Position numbers and translations under genes: made by a program. From a virus, in the IMG/VR virus record IMGVR_UViG_3300032524_000070: DNA of 64,000 bases. The stretch is one strand, 5' to 3'. Shown here piece after piece: positions 2 to 9,958 of the stretch (the stretch's first letter is position 1; each line of letters begins with the position of its first letter). The notes beneath the pieces are model-generated. The model had not been told where the DNA came from. It did no database searches and was given only the letters and a program-made list of their open reading frames with translations.

Positions 2-229
2 AACCCCTCCACGGCGACGACGAAGGCCCGTGTCCGTGTCACCGTCGAGATCCTCGACTGCCCGGAGGTCGGTGACACCAGCTACTCGTTCACCCTCGAC
101 GAGGCGGTCATCTCGAACAGCCGCGAGGTGAAGCAGGTCGAGCTGCCGGACGGTGGGTACGAGCTGGTGTCCAGCCCGGATGTCACCTGGTCGATCACGG
201 GCACGGAGCTGGACGTTCCGAGCCACTGA
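2..229 (+). CDS. Hypothetical protein, 3' part (truncated by window start)
   Basis: Open frame from nt 2 (NPSTATTKARVRVTVEILDCPEVG...LDVPSH) to TGA at 227-229, with C/G-rich third positions like neighbouring genes. Not in the ORF track because it has no start. Confidence 0.7.
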   Translation, partial: NPSTATTKARVRVTVEILDCPEVGDTSYSFTLDEAVISNSREVKQVELPDGGYELVSSPDVTWSITGTELDVPSH

Positions 230-255
230 TCCGCCTATCAGCGGCGGGAGGTAGA
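224..255 (+). promoter_or_regulatory. Putative phage late promoter (class III motif)
   Basis: CACT-N7-CTAT-N12-GTAGA. The final A is the A of ATG 255. Matches a motif repeated upstream of structural genes. Confidence 0.45.
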
Positions 256-282
256 TGTACTTCCAGCTAACCGAGTTCCGGC

Positions 283-314
283 CGGTAGTTCTCCTATCAC
301 CTTCGTCAGTTGAA
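283..314 (+). promoter_or_regulatory. Putative phage late promoter (class III) carried by the endonuclease insertion
   Basis: CGGT-AGTTCTC-CTAT-N12-TTGAA, 15 nt upstream of ATG 330. Confidence 0.5.
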
Positions 315-329
315 GGTACGGAGACCCAC

Positions 330-1133
330 ATGCCATCTCGCAAGCACCACCTCATCGACAAGAGCCTCCTCACCAGACTCTATTTTGATGAGGAACGGTC
401 ACTTCGAGCCATCGTGGTGGCAACTGGGACGAACTACCGCCTGGTCAGGGACTCTTTCAAAGCACATGGGTTGTCCTGGCGGTCGAAGTCGGAGGCTCGT
501 GCTGGTCGGCCTTGGGACGATGTCACCAGGGCCAAAATCGCTTCCACAAGGTCAGGACAGAAAGATGCTCCTGAGGTAGCCGCCCGAAAGCGGAGGCAAC
601 TGTCCACTGCGGGCGGGCGCGGGTGGAACAAGGGGTTGACAGCGGCAACGGACGAGAGGGTCGCACGGCAGCGAGATGCTTCCGTTGTGGTTATGCATAC
701 TCCAGAGTTCCGTGCTCGTGCATCGCAAGCTAAGGCGGCACAAATCGAAGCCGGAGGCTACTGGGACCGGGGCTACGTCGAGACCCAGAAGTCCGGGCGC
801 TTGTACTTCATGTCCTCGTGGGAGAGGAGGCGTTGGCTTGAGCTGGATGCTGATCCCGATGTCGTGCAGTTCACTCGTCATCCGTGCCGTATCCCCTACC
901 AGTGGGAGGGTAACCAGCATTTGTATCTGCCAGACGTGCTGATTGGGTACACCGATGGCAGCAAGGTGTTGGAGGAGATCAAGCCCCGAGCACTGCTAGA
1001 TCGTCCGCACAAGGGGCAGAGTCGTCTGCTCGCCAAGGTGCAAGCTGGAGTTGACCATGCAGCCTCTCAAGGCTGGGGTTGGCGGATCTTCTCGTATGAC
1101 GGAGAAGGGGGTGCGTCATTTATTTCCAGTTGA
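330..1133 (+). CDS. Free-standing homing endonuclease: HTH + NUMOD3-like segment + TnsA N-terminal-like PD-(D/E)XK nuclease
   Basis: The C-terminal SSWERR..LELDADPDV..F...P.RIPY......YLPD........LEEIKP is the TnsA_N/T4 gp4-like pattern. The N-terminal LTRLYFDEERSLRAI...G is HTH-like and GRPWDDVTRAKIA is NUMOD3-like. RBS GGAG precedes ATG 330, with an in-frame ATG at 255. Codon usage is less GC3-biased than the flanks. Confidence 0.8.
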   Translation: MPSRKHHLIDKSLLTRLYFDEERSLRAIVVATGTNYRLVRDSFKAHGLSWRSKSEARAGRPWDDVTRAKIASTRSGQKDAPEVAARKRRQLSTAGGRGWNKGLTAATDERVARQRDASVVVMHTPEFRARASQAKAAQIEAGGYWDRGYVETQKSGRLYFMSSWERRRWLELDADPDVVQFTRHPCRIPYQWEGNQHLYLPDVLIGYTDGSKVLEEIKPRALLDRPHKGQSRLLAKVQAGVDHAASQGWGWRIFSYDGEGGASFISS

Positions 1134-2311
1134 CCGAGGCGTTGAAGAGACGGTTCATCGAGGAGCTGCGACGCTACTGGTCGCAGCACCCGAAGTACCG
1201 TGACGACCTCGTGCAGAACATCCAGGGGAAGTTCAGCTTCAAGGAGAGGCCCCAGCACGGGATCATCATCAAGACCGGCTCGGGCAACCGGGTAGACCTC
1301 TCAGCCGACAACTACATCGGCGTGATCGAGTCCTACTGCCTGATGACCCGGGTGAAGAACAAGCCCGGCCTCTCGGTCGAGTGGGTCCGCGAGGACTCCG
1401 TCGCCATCCAGAACAACAACGGCTACTTCCCCTCGCCTCCCGGCCTCTACTACCTCGACGTGCAGGATGAGGACGGGAAGCTCGTCTTCTACGTGGACCC
1501 GCTCGTCGAGGTCTTCCACGAGCCCGTGAGCCTCATCACCCCGACGAGTGGCCAGCTCCAGCAGACCCCGGTGATCGGCAGCCTCCGGCTCTTCGAGCAG
1601 CCGTCCCGCTTCCAGCTCGTAGAGGGCGTGAACTACGACCTCGACGCCACAGGGGGCATCACCCTGACCAGCCCGTTGACGGGTGGCCGGTGGTTGCAGG
1701 CGGACTACCGCTACCCCACAGCATCAACGGGGCCGTACACCATCCACGAGATGCACGCGAACAACGTGGCCGTCCCCGGAGTGGTCATCGCCTTCGGTCG
1801 GCGAGCACAGGCGGGCGACCAGATTGCCATCATGGTCCACGACATCCGGCGGCCCGCCTACATGGAGTACGGCGGGAAGTGGGAGCTGACCCTCGACTGC
1901 GACGTGATGAGCCGGGATGTCCACGCCCAGCAGGAGATCGTGGACCAGACGGTCATCTACCTCTGGGGCGTGCTCCGGTCGCACCTCTCGCACAAGGGCA
2001 TCGAAATCACGGATGTCTCGATGGGCGGTGAGTCAGAGGAGGTCTACGACGAGAACGGTGACGACTACTTCTACAACGCCAACTTCACCATCACCTGCCA
2101 GACCGACTGGTCCATCCATGTCCCCATCGACGGCTGGATGCGGCAGGCAGCTCCCCTGACTCGCGCTCAGGCTGCCCAGATTGCTGCCCTCTCCGACGAT
2201 GAACTTCGGGGGGAGGACGGTAACATCGTGGGTCTGGAGGCCCTTGGCGTCGAAGCGATCCAGGACCCCTTCTGGTCCGGCCGCCGAGGAACCTTCGAGA
2301 TGGTGAAGTAG
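1118..2311 (+). CDS. Putative neck / tail terminator (tail completion) protein
   Basis: 393-aa ORF from TTG 1130, extended here to ATT 1118 (IYFQLTEALKRRF) behind GGGGGTG. The C-terminal ELTLDCDVMSRD...EIVD...GIEITDVSMGGESEE...FYNANFTIT resembles tail-terminator folds. It lies upstream of the sheath. Confidence 0.55.
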   Translation: MYFQLTEALKRRFIEELRRYWSQHPKYRDDLVQNIQGKFSFKERPQHGIIIKTGSGNRVDLSADNYIGVIESYCLMTRVKNKPGLSVEWVREDSVAIQNNNGYFPSPPGLYYLDVQDEDGKLVFYVDPLVEVFHEPVSLITPTSGQLQQTPVIGSLRLFEQPSRFQLVEGVNYDLDATGGITLTSPLTGGRWLQADYRYPTASTGPYTIHEMHANNVAVPGVVIAFGRRAQAGDQIAIMVHDIRRPAYMEYGGKWELTLDCDVMSRDVHAQQEIVDQTVIYLWGVLRSHLSHKGIEITDVSMGGESEEVYDENGDDYFYNANFTITCQTDWSIHVPIDGWMRQAAPLTRAQAAQIAALSDDELRGEDGNIVGLEALGVEAIQDPFWSGRRGTFEMVK

Positions 2312-3217: not shown

Positions 3218-6200
3218 ATGGCTTTCCCCGGTCTGAACTACGCCCCGCCCAACGTCTACACCCGTACCGAGTACGAGAACCCTCTCCAGGGGGCCATCGA
3301 GTCTTTGAAGATCCCGATCTTCATCGGTGAGGGCAACGAGTACCTGTCCCAGGTGGACCTGGAGTGCGTGCGCGGCTCGTCCGCGACCATCGACCAGCGC
3401 ATCGTCGGCGAAGACATGACGGGCCGTGCGGTCGTCAGCGTCTCTGCCACGGGCGTCGTGACGCGGGGTGCCTTCAACGGCGTGCTCAACCGGGTGCAGG
3501 TCCAGAACCTCCCCGTCGTGGACGGCTCCGGTCGGGGCACGACCAGCAACAGCCGCAGCGACGTGACGGTGACCCTGAACGGGCTCCCGGTGGTCGTGAC
3601 GGCCCTGGACGGTGCGGCAGGCATCCTGACCCTCGCGCAGTCCCCGGCTCTGGGCGACCTCCTGCGGGTGAGCTACTACTTCAACCGTGAGGACACGCTC
3701 GTCACGGACGACCTCTCGGAGCAGGTGACCACCCTGGCGGCCCTCATCGAGGCGTCCGTGGGCATCAAGGACGTGAACGCCCCGACGCCGGGCACCACGA
3801 CCATCGACCTGCACGCTGACGTGCTCGGGCCGAGTGGTCAGGTCATCGTCCCGGCGAACAACGTGCTGAACCTGGTCGTGGACGGAACGACGGTCGCGCT
3901 GACGCTGACCCCGAAGACCGACTACACGATGCAGCAGATCTCCAACGTGATCTCGGCTGCGGGCTTCGGGACGTTGACGGGTGCCACCTTCGTCAACAAC
4001 CACGGCGAGAGCACTCTCTCGCTGAACGCCGACCACGACCTGACGGTCCTGGAGGGGACGGCGAACGCCCTGCTGGGGCTGGTCACGGGCTCCGTGAGCA
4101 TCCGCCGGAAGACCTTCTACACGTTCAACGGCCCCATCGTGGACGGCACCAACGGCGGCGTTACGACGACCGACCCGAGCCACGTCGTCGTCAAGGTGGA
4201 CGGCGTGCAGGTCATCCCGACCACCGTGGACGGGGCGACCCGGGCCATCACCCTCGCGCAGGCTCCCGAGGCCGGTTCGACGGTGACGGCGACCTACTGG
4301 TTCAACACCTGGCAGGACACCTACGACCACCTGGCCCACGTGAACGTCACGAGCGTCGAGCGGGTCGGTGATGTCCCCGGCGGCAGCCAGTACACGCAGG
4401 AAGCGGACTTCATCCTCCAGAACGACCGGGTGATGTGGGGCACGGCAGCCTCGGTCGTCAGCGGCATCACGACCACGGGGTCGGAGCTGCTCGACGACAC
4501 GCAGGTCACCCCGACGCTGGTGGACAACCGGACCTTCATGTCCCTCTGCACGCCGGTCACGTCCGCACAGGGCACGGTCAGCACGAGCGACTTCCAGCTC
4601 CCCCTGAGCCCGACGCTGGGCAACGGGCGTTCGACGAGCCTCGGTCAGAGCCTCTTCCAGAGCATCAGCAACAACCGCATCGGCGTCCCGGTGAACCGGC
4701 CCGACGTGGTGGATGTCTACTGGGGCTTCTCGGTGGAAGACGCGCTGGTGCGCGGGCAGGTCGAGGCCATCAAGGTCGAGGGCAGTGTCATCACCCTGCC
4801 GGTGAACGTCCCGGTCGGGGCCAGCGTCTTCGCCAGCTTCTATCACAACATGATCGTGGACATGGAGTACACGCTGGCCGTGGTCCTGCCCGGCATCAGC
4901 GGCGTGGGCACCTACACCATCGCCGACTCCGCAGGCTCCAGCGTCTTCACGCCGACCTTCGACAACAGCACGAAGTCGGCGGGCCTGACGGGCATCGAGA
5001 TCGTCTTCCCGAGCGGCTCCGAGTTGACCCCGGACCTCCACTTCGAGGGAGGTGCCGGGACCGGCTTCACCGGCCCCATCGAAGAGGTCGTCACGGTCAC
5101 CCTCGCGGCGACCCAGGACACCCCGGCGAAGTTCACGGTCTCCGGCCCCTCGCCCTACGTCTTCGTCCCCGGTGAGTCCGACCTCATCGCCATGACGATC
5201 AACGGGGACCTGGTCCTCCCGGTCGCGGGCACCGACATGGACGTGCTCTCCGGCGGTGGTCTGGGCGTCATGGCCCACTTCGTCGGCAACGAGGTGGTCT
5301 ACCCGGACGGCATCGACTTCGACGCGGCTGACTTCGTGAACGGCAACGAGCAGGTCATCCTCACCCTCGACGCGGTGGAGGTCACGGCGACCGTCGAGGC
5401 CGCTGCGAACGTGACCGTGGACGGTTGGGTCGCGGCCATCAACGAGGCGGCTGACGGCCACCAGGGCGTCGCAGGCGCGGGTGCCCCGGCTACCACGACC
5501 TTCGAGCTGGCAGCGGGCAGCCGTTCCGCCGTGGACAACTACTACGCCGGGTGGCGGGTGGTCGTCGGCAGCGGTGCCTTCGCCATCACGGCGGGTTCCA
5601 TCGGTACGGTCGCCAGCTACGTCGGAGCCACGGGCATCATCACCCTGACGGCGGCCATCGCCGGGGCCGCCATCTTCACGGTGGGCGATCCCTACCGCAT
5701 CTACAACCCCGACACGATGGCCGAGGTCAAGGGAGCCACGCGCTTCAACGGTCCCATCGACCTGTCGGGTGGTGCGGGCTTCGACACCCTGACCCTGCGG
5801 TTCAACTGTCTCGCCACGGGGGGTGCGGTGAACATCAGTGCCGGTGTGGCGGCCCTGCACGCATCGGTCACCGCTCTGGCGACGGCCCTCAACACGGCCT
5901 TCCGTGGGGCCTCCGGCAGCGACATCCTGGTCACCCCGGCGGTCGGCTCCCCCATCGCCCTCGCCATCGTCGGTGATGTCCTCCTCTCGGGTCTGGACTT
6001 CATCTTCACGGCGGACGGCGAGGGTCGCCTGACGGTGGTGGTTCAGCTCCCGGGCCTCTCGGCGGCGGGCTTCCTGGAGTTCGTGGCACAGGGCGCAGCG
6101 GTCGATGACCTGGGAATCCTCGCGGGCTTCGACGTGGGCACGGCTGGCAGCGGCCAGATGAAGCTGAACATCGGCGAGGTGGCGAAGAGCTACCGGCTGA

Positions 6201-8527
6201 CTCAGGGCGGCGTGAACGTCCACGACCGGCTCATCCTCCGCAACCGCATCCACCCCGGCGGCTTCTCCATGAGCGCCCTGGATGCGGTCGGTCAGTGCCA
6301 GCTCCTCGTGGGCGCGGGCTCCGGCAACGCCAAGGCGGGTCTGACGAACGCGGACTACGGCGAGGCGGCCCACGGTGCCACGGTCCACGGGGCCACGATG
6401 GTCGGTCGGGTCGGCTTCGCTGGTGGCACGAACACGGCGGGCGAGCCGCAGGTGACCTTCTACGACGGTACGGGGGCACAGCCCGCGAACAACGTCCTGG
6501 CCTTCACCCTCGACGGTGTGCCCTTCAGCGTGACGTTCACCTCGTCCGCCACGGGCACGGTGAACATCCTCGGCATCGCGGCGGTCGCGGGCAACCGGAT
6601 CATCCTCCAGATCCAGACGGCCATGGCTGCTCTGCCGGGCGCTCCGTTCGGCAATCTGGCAACCATCCAGGGCGCGAACATCATCCGCCCCGAGGGTGCG
6701 GGCATCCGCATCACCAGCACGGAGATGCACGAGAGCGGCGTCATCGTCATGGGTGGCGGCTCGGCCAACTCGGTACTCGGCTTCACCGAGGGCATGGTCG
6801 CGGCCCGGCAGCTCGTCACGGCGGGGATGCTGGCGTCGGCCCTGAACTCGCACCGGGAGAACAACATCCCGGACTTCCTGCACGACTTCTCGGCCATCAA
6901 CAGCGCGGCTGCTGAGTTCGCTGCACAGGCCATCGCCAAGGTGGTCGAGGACACGGCTTCACGGAAGTTCCTGCACATCGCCTCGGCGGGTCCGGCCACC
7001 AGCGACTACGGCACCGGCTCCACCATCGCCCTGCTGGCGGCCACGACTCGTTCCTGGCTGTTCGTGGGCACGGGCATCGACGAGCTGAGCAACGCCGGTT
7101 CGGCGGGCGAGGCGGCCCTCAACGGATTCTTCGTCACGTCCTCGGACGGGGTGAACGGGTCGGGTTCGACTGACACCTCGGTCCTCAACGCGGGCACCGG
7201 ACAGGATGGGACCATCGGCCAGACGTACCGCGACGCGGTGACGGGCCTGACGTTCACCATCCTGCCTCGCGGCTGGCACGACAACCCGGCGGGTCCGTGG
7301 AACGCCTACCCGGCGGCGGCGACGTTCCGGTTCGCGGTCAGCTCGACGGTCACGACCGACGCGAACATCCCGGTTCGGTCCATCCCCGGTCTGGAGATGA
7401 AGGTCGCCAACACGGCCGGTGTGGGTGCGGGTGACACGGCCATCGTGCAGACGTTCCCGCGAGGGGGCGAAGAGCCCGCCATCGGGGACATCTACTACGC
7501 GAGCTACGTCTACCAGAAGCAGGATTTCACCACGGCATTCTTCACGAAGATGTCGTCCATCATCGCGGCCTACGGTGCCATCCACCCGGAGAACCCGGTG
7601 TCGCTGGCGGCCTACCTGGCGATGATCAACGGGGCCGTCCTCGTCGGCGTGAAGCAGGTGCCCCGTGCGACCGGGACCAACTTCGCCAGCATCACGACCT
7701 ACGTGGCGGCGGTCACGGAGCTGGAAGGTGTCCTGCCCGGTCACATCGAGCCGGACCTGATCACTCCCCTGCTCGGGACCTCGACGCAGCTCTTCCAGTT
7801 GCTCGCCCGCAGCAACGACATCCAGAGCAGCATCCGCTACCGCAGCGAGCGCACCAGCGTCATCGGGATGGCGGCGGGCTCGACCGAGGCGCAGGCGAAG
7901 ACCCTGGCTGGTGTCCTGTCCAACGACCGGATGCGGGTGGTCTACCCGGACATGGCCCTCATCGACATCGAGGAGGACGACGGGACCAGCAAGGAGCACC
8001 TCATCGACGGCCCGATGCTGGCCGCGATGCTGACCGGCTCCGTGGTCAGCCCGAACTACGACGTGGCCTCCCCCTGGACGCGACGGAAGCTCATCGGGCC
8101 GAGCCAGCTCGGTCGGACGCTCGACGCCGTGCAGCAGAACCAGCTCGCCCAGGCGGGCATCACGGTGCTGGACGACAAGCCCCCCTTCATCCGGGTGCGT
8201 CACGGTCTGACGACCGACATGACCAGCATCCTGACGAAGACGCCGACCGTCCGGCTCATCGCCGACCACGTGCAGCAGCAGAGCCGGTCCACGCTGGACC
8301 AGTTCATCGGGCTGAAGTTCCTGCCCGGCATCCTCTCGCAGGTCGAGGGGCGGCTGGCCAAGATGTTCCAGACGCTCGTGAAGCAGCAGATCATCGCCAT
8401 CTACACCGGCCTCAAGGCTCAGGTGGATGCCGAGGACCCGACGACGGCCAACGTCGAGGCGTACTACCAGCCGGTCTTCCCGCTGCTCTACATCGTCCTG
8501 ACGTTCCATTTGAGGGCCTCCCTCTAG
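3218..8527 (+). CDS. Giant contractile tail sheath protein (1769 aa)
   Basis: N-terminal YAPPNVYTRTE..IPIFIGEG and C-terminal IRVRHGLTT...PTVRLIADHV...FIG.K...AYYQPVFPLLYIVLTF are typical sheath termini. About 1300 aa of beta-rich insertion lie between them. RBS GAGGTG. Confidence 0.9.
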   Translation: MAFPGLNYAPPNVYTRTEYENPLQGAIESLKIPIFIGEGNEYLSQVDLECVRGSSATIDQRIVGEDMTGRAVVSVSATGVVTRGAFNGVLNRVQVQNLPVVDGSGRGTTSNSRSDVTVTLNGLPVVVTALDGAAGILTLAQSPALGDLLRVSYYFNREDTLVTDDLSEQVTTLAALIEASVGIKDVNAPTPGTTTIDLHADVLGPSGQVIVPANNVLNLVVDGTTVALTLTPKTDYTMQQISNVISAAGFGTLTGATFVNNHGESTLSLNADHDLTVLEGTANALLGLVTGSVSIRRKTFYTFNGPIVDGTNGGVTTTDPSHVVVKVDGVQVIPTTVDGATRAITLAQAPEAGSTVTATYWFNTWQDTYDHLAHVNVTSVERVGDVPGGSQYTQEADFILQNDRVMWGTAASVVSGITTTGSELLDDTQVTPTLVDNRTFMSLCTPVTSAQGTVSTSDFQLPLSPTLGNGRSTSLGQSLFQSISNNRIGVPVNRPDVVDVYWGFSVEDALVRGQVEAIKVEGSVITLPVNVPVGASVFASFYHNMIVDMEYTLAVVLPGISGVGTYTIADSAGSSVFTPTFDNSTKSAGLTGIEIVFPSGSELTPDLHFEGGAGTGFTGPIEEVVTVTLAATQDTPAKFTVSGPSPYVFVPGESDLIAMTINGDLVLPVAGTDMDVLSGGGLGVMAHFVGNEVVYPDGIDFDAADFVNGNEQVILTLDAVEVTATVEAAANVTVDGWVAAINEAADGHQGVAGAGAPATTTFELAAGSRSAVDNYYAGWRVVVGSGAFAITAGSIGTVASYVGATGIITLTAAIAGAAIFTVGDPYRIYNPDTMAEVKGATRFNGPIDLSGGAGFDTLTLRFNCLATGGAVNISAGVAALHASVTALATALNTAFRGASGSDILVTPAVGSPIALAIVGDVLLSGLDFIFTADGEGRLTVVVQLPGLSAAGFLEFVAQGAAVDDLGILAGFDVGTAGSGQMKLNIGEVAKSYRLTQGGVNVHDRLILRNRIHPGGFSMSALDAVGQCQLLVGAGSGNAKAGLTNADYGEAAHGATVHGATMVGRVGFAGGTNTAGEPQVTFYDGTGAQPANNVLAFTLDGVPFSVTFTSSATGTVNILGIAAVAGNRIILQIQTAMAALPGAPFGNLATIQGANIIRPEGAGIRITSTEMHESGVIVMGGGSANSVLGFTEGMVAARQLVTAGMLASALNSHRENNIPDFLHDFSAINSAAAEFAAQAIAKVVEDTASRKFLHIASAGPATSDYGTGSTIALLAATTRSWLFVGTGIDELSNAGSAGEAALNGFFVTSSDGVNGSGSTDTSVLNAGTGQDGTIGQTYRDAVTGLTFTILPRGWHDNPAGPWNAYPAAATFRFAVSSTVTTDANIPVRSIPGLEMKVANTAGVGAGDTAIVQTFPRGGEEPAIGDIYYASYVYQKQDFTTAFFTKMSSIIAAYGAIHPENPVSLAAYLAMINGAVLVGVKQVPRATGTNFASITTYVAAVTELEGVLPGHIEPDLITPLLGTSTQLFQLLARSNDIQSSIRYRSERTSVIGMAAGSTEAQAKTLAGVLSNDRMRVVYPDMALIDIEEDDGTSKEHLIDGPMLAAMLTGSVVSPNYDVASPWTRRKLIGPSQLGRTLDAVQQNQLAQAGITVLDDKPPFIRVRHGLTTDMTSILTKTPTVRLIADHVQQQSRSTLDQFIGLKFLPGILSQVEGRLAKMFQTLVKQQIIAIYTGLKAQVDAEDPTTANVEAYYQPVFPLLYIVLTFHLRASL

Positions 8528-8581: not shown

Positions 8582-8610
8582 TTGACTAAGTATCGGGCAG
8601 TCCGTATCTT
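8582..8610 (+). promoter_or_regulatory. Sigma70-like promoter, predicted leaderless
   Basis: TTGACT-N17-TATCTT, then 7 nt to ATG 8618, with no clear Shine-Dalgarno. Confidence 0.65.
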
Positions 8611-8617
8611 CCGGGGT

Positions 8618-9958
8618 ATGGACTGCCCGATCTGCCCCACGACTGTCGTTGACGCCCGAGGGCTCGCGACCCACTTCCGCCATCAGGATGCGACCCACCC
8701 CGTCTACAAGACGTGGCAGGAGGAGCAGCGGTGGGCCGGGAAGGTCGAGGGGGAGGACTACATCGTCTGCCTGGAGTGCGGGCATCGAGCGGGGACGCTG
8801 GCCCGGCATCTGAAGGCGGTTCACGGGATCACGGCTGACCAGTACCGGGTGAAGCACGGGGACGTGCTCATCCGGGCCACCAGCGTCACGGAGAGGCGTC
8901 GGGAGGCCATCCAGAGTGCGCGGACTACCTCGACTGCTTACGACGGCTTCAAGAGCGTCGTGTGCCCTTCCTGCGGGGAGGGGCACGAGGTCCACAAACT
9001 GTCTGGCGTGGTGCCTTGCCCTGAGTGCAAGGAGCGAGCGGTGGCAGCCCACTGGGAGGGGAAGTCGGAGCCGGACGACTTCGTCGTCTGCCTGGAGTGT
9101 GGGTACCGGGCTGAGAACCTGACGAGCCACATCCAGAACGCTCATCCTGGGTACCGGGAGAGGCATCCCGATGCCTACATGGTGGCGTTGGGGTCTGCCG
9201 TCAGGGACAAGTCCGCGTTGAAGGGCCGCAGGCGGTCACCCGAGTTCAAGCAGGCCATCCGGGAGGCGAAGACCATCGGGCTGACCCAGGGGGACTTCGA
9301 GCCCTACCTGGAGGCTGACGGCACGGTGGACCATCGACGTGCGATGGAGGGCTTGATGGTCGCGTGGCCGACGCTCAAGCGGTACATGGACGACCTGGGG
9401 TTGAGCCCCACCGACAAGTACATCCGGCAGCGACAGGCCGAGCGGGTGGTGACCCTCACGGTGGAGGGTCTGGAGGCATTCAAGCTGAAGAACGGGAAGG
9501 TGAGCGTGGGCCAGGCCGCGAGGGACATGGGCTACTGCTTCAGGACGGTCAAACGGGAGTGCGACCGTCTTGGGCTGCCGACGTTCCATCGCCGAATCCG
9601 TCAGACGCTCTGCCTGGACGCCGTGTCAGAAGCCCTCGGTGGTCTGGACTACGCCGAGGAGTGGAAGTCCTGGCGGTTCACGAACCCTCCCACGGGTCAT
9701 CGGTTCCGGTTCGACGGCTACTTCCCGGACGTGGGGTTGGTTGTCGAGTTCCAGGGGCACCAGCACTACACGTTCCCGAACGCCTTCATGGTGGACGAGT
9801 CATACCGGGGGGAGTGGGAGGCCATGGTGGAGCGGGACCGGATCAAGCGGGAGCTGATCGAGGCGGCTCCCGATCTGCTCTACCTGGAGATCCGGGAGGA
9901 CGAGCCGTTCACGGACGAGATGTACCTACGGGGTCGTCTCGCTGGGCTGGGTCAGTAG
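8618..9958 (+). CDS. Zinc-finger (C2H2 + two ROS/MucR-like) homing-type endonuclease with C-terminal Vsr/DUF559-like nuclease
   Basis: CPIC...H...H, DYIVCLECG....LARHLKAVHGITADQYR (MucR-like), a second VVCLECG....LTSHI, NUMOD3-like KGRRRSPEFKQAI, and RFDGYFP...LVVEFQGHQH...RDRIK (Vsr/EDxHD-like). Confidence 0.8.
   Translation: MDCPICPTTVVDARGLATHFRHQDATHPVYKTWQEEQRWAGKVEGEDYIVCLECGHRAGTLARHLKAVHGITADQYRVKHGDVLIRATSVTERRREAIQSARTTSTAYDGFKSVVCPSCGEGHEVHKLSGVVPCPECKERAVAAHWEGKSEPDDFVVCLECGYRAENLTSHIQNAHPGYRERHPDAYMVALGSAVRDKSALKGRRRSPEFKQAIREAKTIGLTQGDFEPYLEADGTVDHRRAMEGLMVAWPTLKRYMDDLGLSPTDKYIRQRQAERVVTLTVEGLEAFKLKNGKVSVGQAARDMGYCFRTVKRECDRLGLPTFHRRIRQTLCLDAVSEALGGLDYAEEWKSWRFTNPPTGHRFRFDGYFPDVGLVVEFQGHQHYTFPNAFMVDESYRGEWEAMVERDRIKRELIEAAPDLLYLEIREDEPFTDEMYLRGRLAGLGQ

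Follow-up and report, generated by a model that had tools for sequence, protein, structure and literature searches.

How can a nuclease gene come to lie within the coding sequence of a presumably essential structural gene of a phage and leave that gene whole? The question is raised by a stretch of 64,000 nucleotides (nt) from the IMG/VR virus record IMGVR_UViG_3300032524_000070 (hereafter the window, part of a 132.8-kb viral record), in which the first seven codons of a neck/tail-terminator-like gene, here called the neck gene, occur twice, on either side of an open reading frame (ORF) for a putative homing endonuclease. To our knowledge, homing endonucleases are thought to enter coding sequences only in introns or inteins, or by splitting the gene that they invade. 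The explanation that we favour, with a probability of about 0.7 for the whole of it, is that an 863-nt free-standing homing-endonuclease cassette has been inserted after codon 7 of the neck gene in a giant phage. Such a cassette would comprise a leader with its own ribosome-binding site and a copy of the phage CCTATC motif, a gene for a nuclease whose domain is of the TnsA-like PD-(D/E)xK type (accompanied by NUMOD3 in relatives), a new Shine-Dalgarno sequence inside the last nuclease codons, and a recoded neck-gene 5' end that opens with ATT. A full-length neck protein, formyl-Met-YFQLTEALK..., would then be produced from ATT 1118 without splicing.

The two copies read ATG TAC TTC CAG CTA ACC GAG (MYFQLTE) at 255-275 and ATT TAT TTC CAG TTG ACC GAG at 1118-1138, where the sequence runs on into ALKRRF. 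They share 17 of 21 bases and, except for Met/Ile, the same peptide. That one peptide is written twice in different codons was the starting point of the original prediction, and the pairing is unique: within four mismatches of the first 21-mer, the sole other site on either strand of the 64-kb window is the one at 1118, and a shuffled-sequence control gave 0 matches per 20 kb. The ORF at 255-1133 has no internal stop, shares the frame of the first copy and closes with a TGA that overlaps the TTG at 1130. In the frame of the neck gene, a stop lies at 1097-1099 and no ATG, GTG or TTG occurs between this stop and 1130; the Shine-Dalgarno sequence GGAGAAGGGGGTG stands 4 nt 5' of ATT 1118. The second copy overlaps the end of the nuclease gene behind a Shine-Dalgarno sequence, as had been proposed. 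The coordinates of these features are collected in Table 1.

Table 1. Features of the invaded neck-gene locus, in coordinates of the window
Feature	Position	Strand	Basis and remarks
Native upstream signals of the neck gene	229..254	+	CCTATC 234-239 and Shine-Dalgarno GGGAGGT 246-252; same layout before ATG in empty loci L003 and L007
First copy, displaced original neck-gene start (ATG and codons 2-7)	255..275	+	2 of 21 bases differ from empty alleles; similarity ends from 276
Cassette leader	276..329	+	Second CCTATC 293-298; GGAG 319-322, 7 nt before ATG 330
Nuclease gene, 267 amino acids from ATG 330 (292 from ATG 255)	330..1133	+	PF08722, fold, family alignment
Replacement neck-gene Shine-Dalgarno GGAGAAGGGGGTG, within the last nuclease codons	1101..1113	+	Sequence
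Second copy and recoded patch: ATT 1118-1120, gene bases 1-31	1118..1148	+	8 substitutions against empty alleles
Neck/tail-terminator-like structural gene, 397 codons from ATT 1118	1118..2311	+	Homologs, fold matches; upstream of the sheath gene
TTGA overlap: TTG 1130 (neck codon 5) and nuclease stop TGA 1131-1133	1130..1133	+	Possible coupled re-initiation site

The state of the locus before insertion can be read from relatives that carry no nuclease. In four such empty-site loci (L003, L004, L005 and L007) the neck gene is 94-95% identical to that of the window and encodes 397 amino acids, and it opens with the ATG-led MYFQLTEALKRRF directly behind a window-like CCTATC...AGGAGGTAG upstream sequence. 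Since the empty alleles begin in this way behind the same ribosome-binding site, the window holds an insertion after codon 7, which amounts to 863 additional bases bounded by the 21-nt duplication. Insertion-free homologs thus do begin with MYFQLTEALK, as had been anticipated, and the insertion point agrees with the one first proposed; the invaded gene, then described as a tail gene, is read here as neck/tail-terminator-like. The native signals upstream of the first copy now serve this copy and the nuclease. A further contig (L006) presents the same arrangement as the window; because it is 100% identical to the record of the window over the shared 3,544 nt, it perhaps derives from the same source and may not be an independent case. 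A megablast search of positions 1-2400 against a phage collection gave no match.

The replaced end of the neck gene differs from the rest of it. Compared with L007 and L021, the gene of the window shows 8 differences in its first 33 bases and 10 in the 297 that follow (p about 1e-5 in a binomial test, for one close comparison). The substitutions fall at gene positions 3, 6, 13, 15, 18, 25, 27 and 31 and are all synonymous save for the change of ATG to ATT; the patch that they form has its centre at the insertion point and extends further than the 21-nt duplication. The corresponding patch of the empty allele L007 has 2 differences from the outgroup L026, being almost the same, which indicates that the patch of the window is the derived one. 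From base 34 on, the gene is ~97% identical to ATG-type empty alleles, against ~76% for bases 1-33; the 5' patch therefore has a separate history and travels with the nuclease. The codon choices TAT, TTG and GCG TTG recur in other nuclease-linked alleles. The neck gene is a chimera with sharply greater divergence at its replaced end, as seen in this one close pair, and the recoded replacement 5' end of the original prediction is thereby recovered as a patch that contains the second copy. Such a patch matches what would be expected of a homing site of ~30 bp made uncleavable.

The product of the inserted gene has the architecture of a homing endonuclease, as first suggested, and occupies one site in every locus examined. 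It combines an N-terminal part, modelled as helical and putatively DNA-binding, with a C-terminal TnsA-like PD-(D/E)xK domain. The nuclease of the window matches Pfam PF08722 (expectation value, E, 1e-10, above the curated cut-off), as do 29 of 29 members of its family, and the catalytic motif (P-D at 930-935, E-E-x-K at 972-983) is invariant as PD..EE.K in the alignment of these 29 sequences. Of these 29, 8 also match NUMOD3 (PF07460), a motif with which homing endonucleases bind DNA; the best E is 6e-11. The structural model, with a predicted local distance difference test score (pLDDT) of 87, superposes on TnsA 1t0f (E 2e-5, root mean square deviation 3.0 Å, 127 columns); the match is limited to the N-terminal catalytic domain of TnsA, and the C-terminal domain of TnsA is absent. 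These data suggest that an endonuclease domain with intact catalytic residues and a predicted site specificity is encoded. The composition of the gene is foreign, with a G+C content at third codon positions of 0.64 against 0.88-0.92 in neighbouring genes. No paper mentioning both NUMOD3 and TnsA was found in the literature searched.

About 30 relatives of the nuclease were obtained by a metagenome scan and by a scan with the neck gene, and none by a nuclease-only scan of viral_contigs. The nuclease, intact or truncated by the end of the contig, lies directly upstream of the neck gene in 15 of the 15 distinct loci read as DNA, made up of 13 whose start codon could be scored, of L006, identical to the window, and of L020, in which the nuclease is broken (the loci read being L006, L010, L011, L012, L013, L016, L017, L019, L020, L051, which is cut by the contig end, L066/L068, L101, L103 and L104). 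The same arrangement is seen, from gene calls and protein ends only, in the 399-kb contig that encodes the closest nuclease (P0122 with P0011). Among these loci the identity of the nuclease to the copy in the window goes down to 41%. When 71 distinct neck genes are arranged in a tree, those that carry the nuclease are dispersed over it. The identities of the two genes are also discordant: nuclease and neck gene of the window share 64% and 55%, respectively, with those of L068, and 58% and 75% with those of L012. Decayed copies are also present: the nuclease of L020 (243-1017 of that locus) is broken by an internal stop; L049 keeps a 53-codon remnant made of the last nuclease codons only (1627-1785); L023, L024/25 and L072 keep 12-25 nuclease codons directly before the gene start, about 25 of them together with the leader motif in L024/25 (~1716-1800 of L024); and L036 has a probable remnant of about 45 nt before the gene start. 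Presence and absence at one fixed site among close relatives, patchy spread and decayed copies are thus all seen, and together they read as the pattern of a putative homing element that spreads, decays and is lost.

Equivalents of the first copy, of 6-8 codons and ending at the same junction, are found in L011, L012, L013, L016, L020, L068, L103, P0123, P0134 and P0145. In 6 lineages the fragment can be read without a break, and in frame, into the nuclease; in L011 and L012 it leads into a stop. In L068 (~960-1012) it is a mini-ORF of 10 codons, MYFQLTEARA, with its TAA immediately before the ATG of the nuclease, a layout that suggests translation of the nuclease by re-initiation from the original start of the neck gene. 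Judged from these layouts, the first copy would often be used to feed ribosomes from the original gene start into the nuclease; in addition, by analogy with the yeast WHO elements (PMC7282813), it may serve as a left homology arm. The proposal that the orphaned MYFQLTE stays in frame with the nuclease is consequently right for the window and does not extend to the family, given the stops of L011 and L012, the mini-ORF of L068 and five loci from which the first copy is missing altogether.

The putative late promoter that the original prediction placed at 283-314 contains CCTATC at 293-298, a second copy of the motif found at 234-239. Within the window CCTAT[AC] is under-represented, with 11 found and about 35 expected, and several copies lie just 5' of genes; sites of the form CCTAT(A/C) were noted at 234-239, 293-298, 48832, 48945 (minus strand) and 54949. 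Of 60 distinct nuclease-free loci, 29 have C[CT]TAT[ACG] within 80 nt before the neck gene, mostly at 29-43 nt, versus 1 of 60 control windows, and CCTAT(A/C/G) precedes the nuclease start in the window and in L010, L011, L012, L016 and L020. The motif is a conserved upstream element and may be a phage-polymerase promoter or a processing signal. A scan of positions 1-2500 found no sigma-70 promoter or intrinsic terminator.

In 80 IMG/VR loci of the neck gene (L021-L100), the codon aligned with Met1 is ATG in 33, GTG in 19, ATT in 15, TTG in 10 and ATC in 3, which places ATT/ATC in 18 of the 80 loci, about one in four alleles. Among distinct alleles with an intact nuclease, ATT/ATC is found in 7, TTG in 3, ATG in 3 and GTG in 0; with a nuclease remnant only, the counts are 2, 3, 0 and 0, and with no nuclease detected they are 9, 6, 23 and 16. 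By Fisher's test the nuclease is associated with ATT/ATC at an odds ratio of 5 (p 0.01), and at an odds ratio of 13 (p 5e-5) when TTG is included, an association that ignores shared ancestry and compares two classes sampled by different queries, both of which weaken it as support for the cassette. One inserted G separates the TTG type of start (CA TTG TAT) from the ATT type (C ATT TAT), hence the two kinds of nuclease C-terminus. It is a tentative proposal, to which we give somewhat less than an even chance, that the passage and loss of a TnsA-like cassette with a portable ribosome-binding site, a weak AUU/UUG start and a recoded target seeded AUU, AUC and UUG starts through the neck-gene family. 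A -1 frameshift fusing the nuclease and the neck protein was also considered; it was dropped, as there is no slippery heptamer and TTG-type cassettes shift the relative frame.

The most serious rival to the cassette takes the nuclease as an ordinary intergenic homing endonuclease and regards ATT, GGAGGTG and the codons of 1118-1148 as native to one class of neck alleles; the first copy would be an incidental by-product of illegitimate recombination with an ATG-type allele and would have no role. Several observations speak for it or otherwise weigh against the explanation that we favour. ATT/ATC starts are present in 9 distinct alleles without any detectable trace of a nuclease, and two ATT alleles, L061 and L070, begin no more than about 20 nt from the actin-like gene that precedes them and leave no room for a scar, so that ATT is not exclusively a mark of the cassette and may be in part a native polymorphism of a low-copy gene. 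ATG is kept in three nuclease-bearing lineages (L012, L013 and L016). The first copy is absent from the nuclease-bearing loci L010, L017, L019, L101 and L104, and for this reason is not required; where it is present, its in-frame state is not conserved. In addition, the nuclease of the window itself falls below the NUMOD3 threshold, with its N-terminal half modelled as helical, and the recoding claim depends on a single close comparison because the 20 further pairs on which the patch test was run differ at 13-40% of sites and are uninformative. The activity of the nuclease, its cut site and the resistance of the patch likewise enter the cassette explanation as predictions. An intergenic nuclease beside a native ATT is nevertheless unlikely in our judgement. 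At this locus, the sharp shift in divergence at about base 31 of the gene in the window, where identity passes from ~76% to ~97%, argues against it. So do the first copies, which about ten nuclease-bearing lineages retain with the junction always after codon 6-8, 6 of 10 being open and in frame. The original prediction needs correcting in one respect here, since ATT/ATC starts are shared with nuclease-free relatives and are not unique to the cassette.

A rival to which we give rather less weight again has the neck protein start at TTG 1130 by termination-reinitiation (M-TEALK), with ATT-TAT-TTC-CAG as an untranslated relic. The overlap of this TTG with the nuclease stop is a classic coupling layout, and the codon is the first canonical start in frame and the one chosen by gene callers (P0001). 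The comparison among alleles argues otherwise. ATT/ATC recurs in 16 distinct alleles, most of them with a GGAGGTG-like Shine-Dalgarno sequence 3-5 nt upstream and some with weaker matches, and in 12 of the 16, the window included, no canonical start exists between the nearest upstream in-frame stop and the ATT/ATC. Downstream, the next canonical start is at codon 5, 9, 14, 15 or 17, and at codons 49-73 in L010, L061 and L070; the TTG at codon 5, the sole canonical option of the window, is not conserved, and most ATT/ATC alleles lack it and would have to start at codon 9 to 73. The residues after ATT keep YF.L(T/S) despite synonymous variation, codons 2-4 of the window being only synonymously different from those of empty alleles, and in an alignment of 36 neck sequences Y2 is invariant and L5 nearly so, residues 2-22 being modelled as a confident helix. 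Moreover, the Shine-Dalgarno sequence is 4 nt from the ATT and 16 nt from the TTG. On these comparisons the N-terminus is best explained by initiation at ATT 1118, and the non-canonical start of the original prediction gains support from alleles in which no alternative start is close by. Ribosomes that terminate at the nuclease stop, 13 nt further on, may contribute as well by coupled re-initiation.

AUU is a known weak start in the bacterial genes infC and pcnB, where it also stands behind a Shine-Dalgarno sequence. AUU/AUC in the neck gene differs from these cases in that it varies among the alleles of a single phage structural gene and is enriched next to a mobile nuclease, and it implies no autoregulation. 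A weak AUU start would suit, we suggest, a neck protein needed in low copy. In an Escherichia coli reporter AUU gives 6-8 times less product than AUG (PMC3592434). As a consequence of ATT/ATC starts, gene callers truncate or extend many of the proteins in databases. It was also observed that 35 of the 120 top database homologs lack the family start M-[YFC]-[YF], many of them being truncated or extended calls.

It is very improbable that the phage has domesticated the nuclease, for instance to process DNA or to evade defences, and that the gene is merely syntenic with the neck gene, or else that it is part of a Tn7-like transposon. The gene is always found at one locus, its PHROG matches include families labelled 'head closure', and its catalytic domain is TnsA-like; it is, however, absent from the closest relatives, scattered on the tree, represented by pseudogenes and remnants, and aberrant in codon composition. 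Unlike a Tn7-like transposon, the cassette has no TnsB/TnsC-like or transposase partner detectable by Pfam among its neighbouring genes, which are structural or unknown, and the repeat finder returned no terminal inverted repeats. Least probable of all is removal of the insert at the RNA or translation level, by a group I/II intron or by ribosomal bypass from 275 to 1139 with the first copy as the true start, because some nuclease-bearing loci (five in all) lack the first copy and no intron signal was found (no Rfam intron or structured-RNA match in 1-2500, even at E up to 10), which makes it unnecessary even though the first copy retains its native Shine-Dalgarno sequence and ATG and both copies end at the same codon; besides, the nuclease ORF fills the insert and leaves no space for a ribozyme core, the first copy meets stops in L011 and L012, remnant alleles retain the second start after losing most of the insert, and we know of no precedent for an 863-nt ribosomal bypass. 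The non-splicing nature of the insertion, as originally put forward, is in keeping with this.

For the cassette, the following course of events can be proposed. The nuclease would cut the uninterrupted allele near gene position 21/22, and the break would be repaired from a cassette-bearing genome, so that the nuclease and the recoded patch are copied together; the copied patch would render the new allele uncleavable, and the displaced fragment with the upstream flank would give the left-side homology. The old start at 255-275, left behind, would feed ribosomes into the nuclease, in the window by way of an in-frame 25-residue extension. Later decay and deletion of the nuclease would leave scars in the form of its last codons, the new Shine-Dalgarno sequence and a non-ATG start.

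The closest parallel is offered by the WHO elements of Torulaspora and Lachancea yeasts, relatives of HO. There the 3' end of FBA1 is exchanged for a resistant version, and the original end persists as a fragment (Coughlan et al. 2020; PMC7282813). The fragment has been proposed to act as a homology arm, cleavage has been shown, and repeated decay leaves pseudogenes (PMC7282813). The phage locus resembles these elements in the nuclease beside a housekeeping gene, the divergent end copy, the old end on the far side, the lack of splicing, the decay and the cutting of the uninterrupted allele, shown for WHO and predicted for the phage cassette. It differs in being in a phage and not in a eukaryotic chromosome, in the length of the replaced stretch (~30 nt here against ~400 nt in WHO), and in replacing the 5' end, for which it must supply a ribosome-binding site and a start codon that a 3'-end element such as WHO need not. 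The nucleases are also different, TnsA-like PD-(D/E)xK here, with NUMOD3 in relatives, and intein-like LAGLIDADG with zinc fingers in WHO; the phage cassette would thus work like a WHO element and is not a member of that family, since its nuclease is not the LAGLIDADG type of WHO, HO and VDE. The invasion of a coding sequence without splicing, which the original prediction had proposed, is supported at this locus and is not wholly new, the yeast WHO elements being its 3'-end mirror image (PMC7282813).

T4-like phages possess free-standing endonucleases of the seg and mob groups, among them mobE in nrdA of Aeh1 and mobA in gene 60/39 (Edgell et al. 2010); these act through double-strand-break repair with co-conversion of the flanks, and translational coupling to the upstream ORF is common among them (PMC2988022). 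As in the present case, these are intronless phage nuclease genes, and expression signals of an essential downstream gene are embedded in the nuclease coding sequence, which favours retention. Some of them have inserted within genes, and insertion there splits the gene into two polypeptides, whereas here the gene remains whole through a duplicate 5' end, and the nucleases are GIY-YIG and HNH there and TnsA-like here. No T4-type endonuclease that keeps the gene whole with a duplicate end was found in the literature searched. I-Ssp6803I is a PD-(D/E)xK homing endonuclease; it is intron-encoded and belongs to another branch of the fold. Similarly, the EDxHD family (I-Bth0305I; PMC3239194) provides a restriction-endonuclease-like fold in a homing element of phages and bacteria, and is unlike the present nuclease in being intron-encoded and in belonging to another branch of the fold.

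The locus would represent a third route into coding sequence in a phage, in which the element brings a replacement gene end, a route previously documented, as far as our literature search found, only for the 3' end in the yeast WHO elements. A 5'-end element has to bring translation signals, and therefore becomes indispensable to the gene that it invades, so that its retention is favoured. If the passage and loss of the cassette did seed the AUU, AUC and UUG starts, a selfish element would be changing where and how translation of a structural gene begins throughout a lineage of giant phages. The locus also offers a compact, apparently site-specific PD-(D/E)xK nuclease with a predicted target some 30 bp long, naturally occurring copies in every state from intact through decaying to lost, in which the life cycle of such an element may be studied, and a clear set of structural genes, apparently AUU/AUC-initiated, that are mis-started by standard gene callers.

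With regard to the invaded gene, it belongs to no Pfam or PHROG family and has 863 homologs at E <= 0.001, in metagenomic giant-phage contigs. A tblastn search with its product returned only a 485-kb uncultured phage, at 50% identity, and a 'tail terminator' at 27%; a search of solved-structure sequences with the neck-gene profile returned nothing, and a fold search was needed. The best fold matches of the model built with 36 homologs (pLDDT 80) are phage 812 neck chain G (E 4e-8), the E217 neck complex and the A-1(L) terminator, and the gene is called neck/tail-terminator-like because these are neck proteins. It is conserved and presumably essential, and judging from the model its product would be needed in few copies per virion. 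Downstream of it lies the tail sheath gene (3218-8527, 1769 amino acids, identified by phrog_2839).

Some minor observations concern the surroundings. A 13-nt match between 309-321 and 1141-1153, reported by the repeat finder, was judged to be due to chance, being no better than eight other such pairs. Directly behind the sheath gene, the ORF at 8582-9958 (plus strand, 458 amino acids) has a match to a ROS/MucR zinc finger (E 5e-15) and further zinc-finger-like matches. An actin-like gene (Pfam PF25216, Volactin) lies 1-3 genes upstream of the neck gene in L003-L009, L019, L061, L070, L098 and L101, and also just before the start of the window (G000); the genes between the actin-like gene and the neck gene vary in number and identity, which marks this interval as a variable region.

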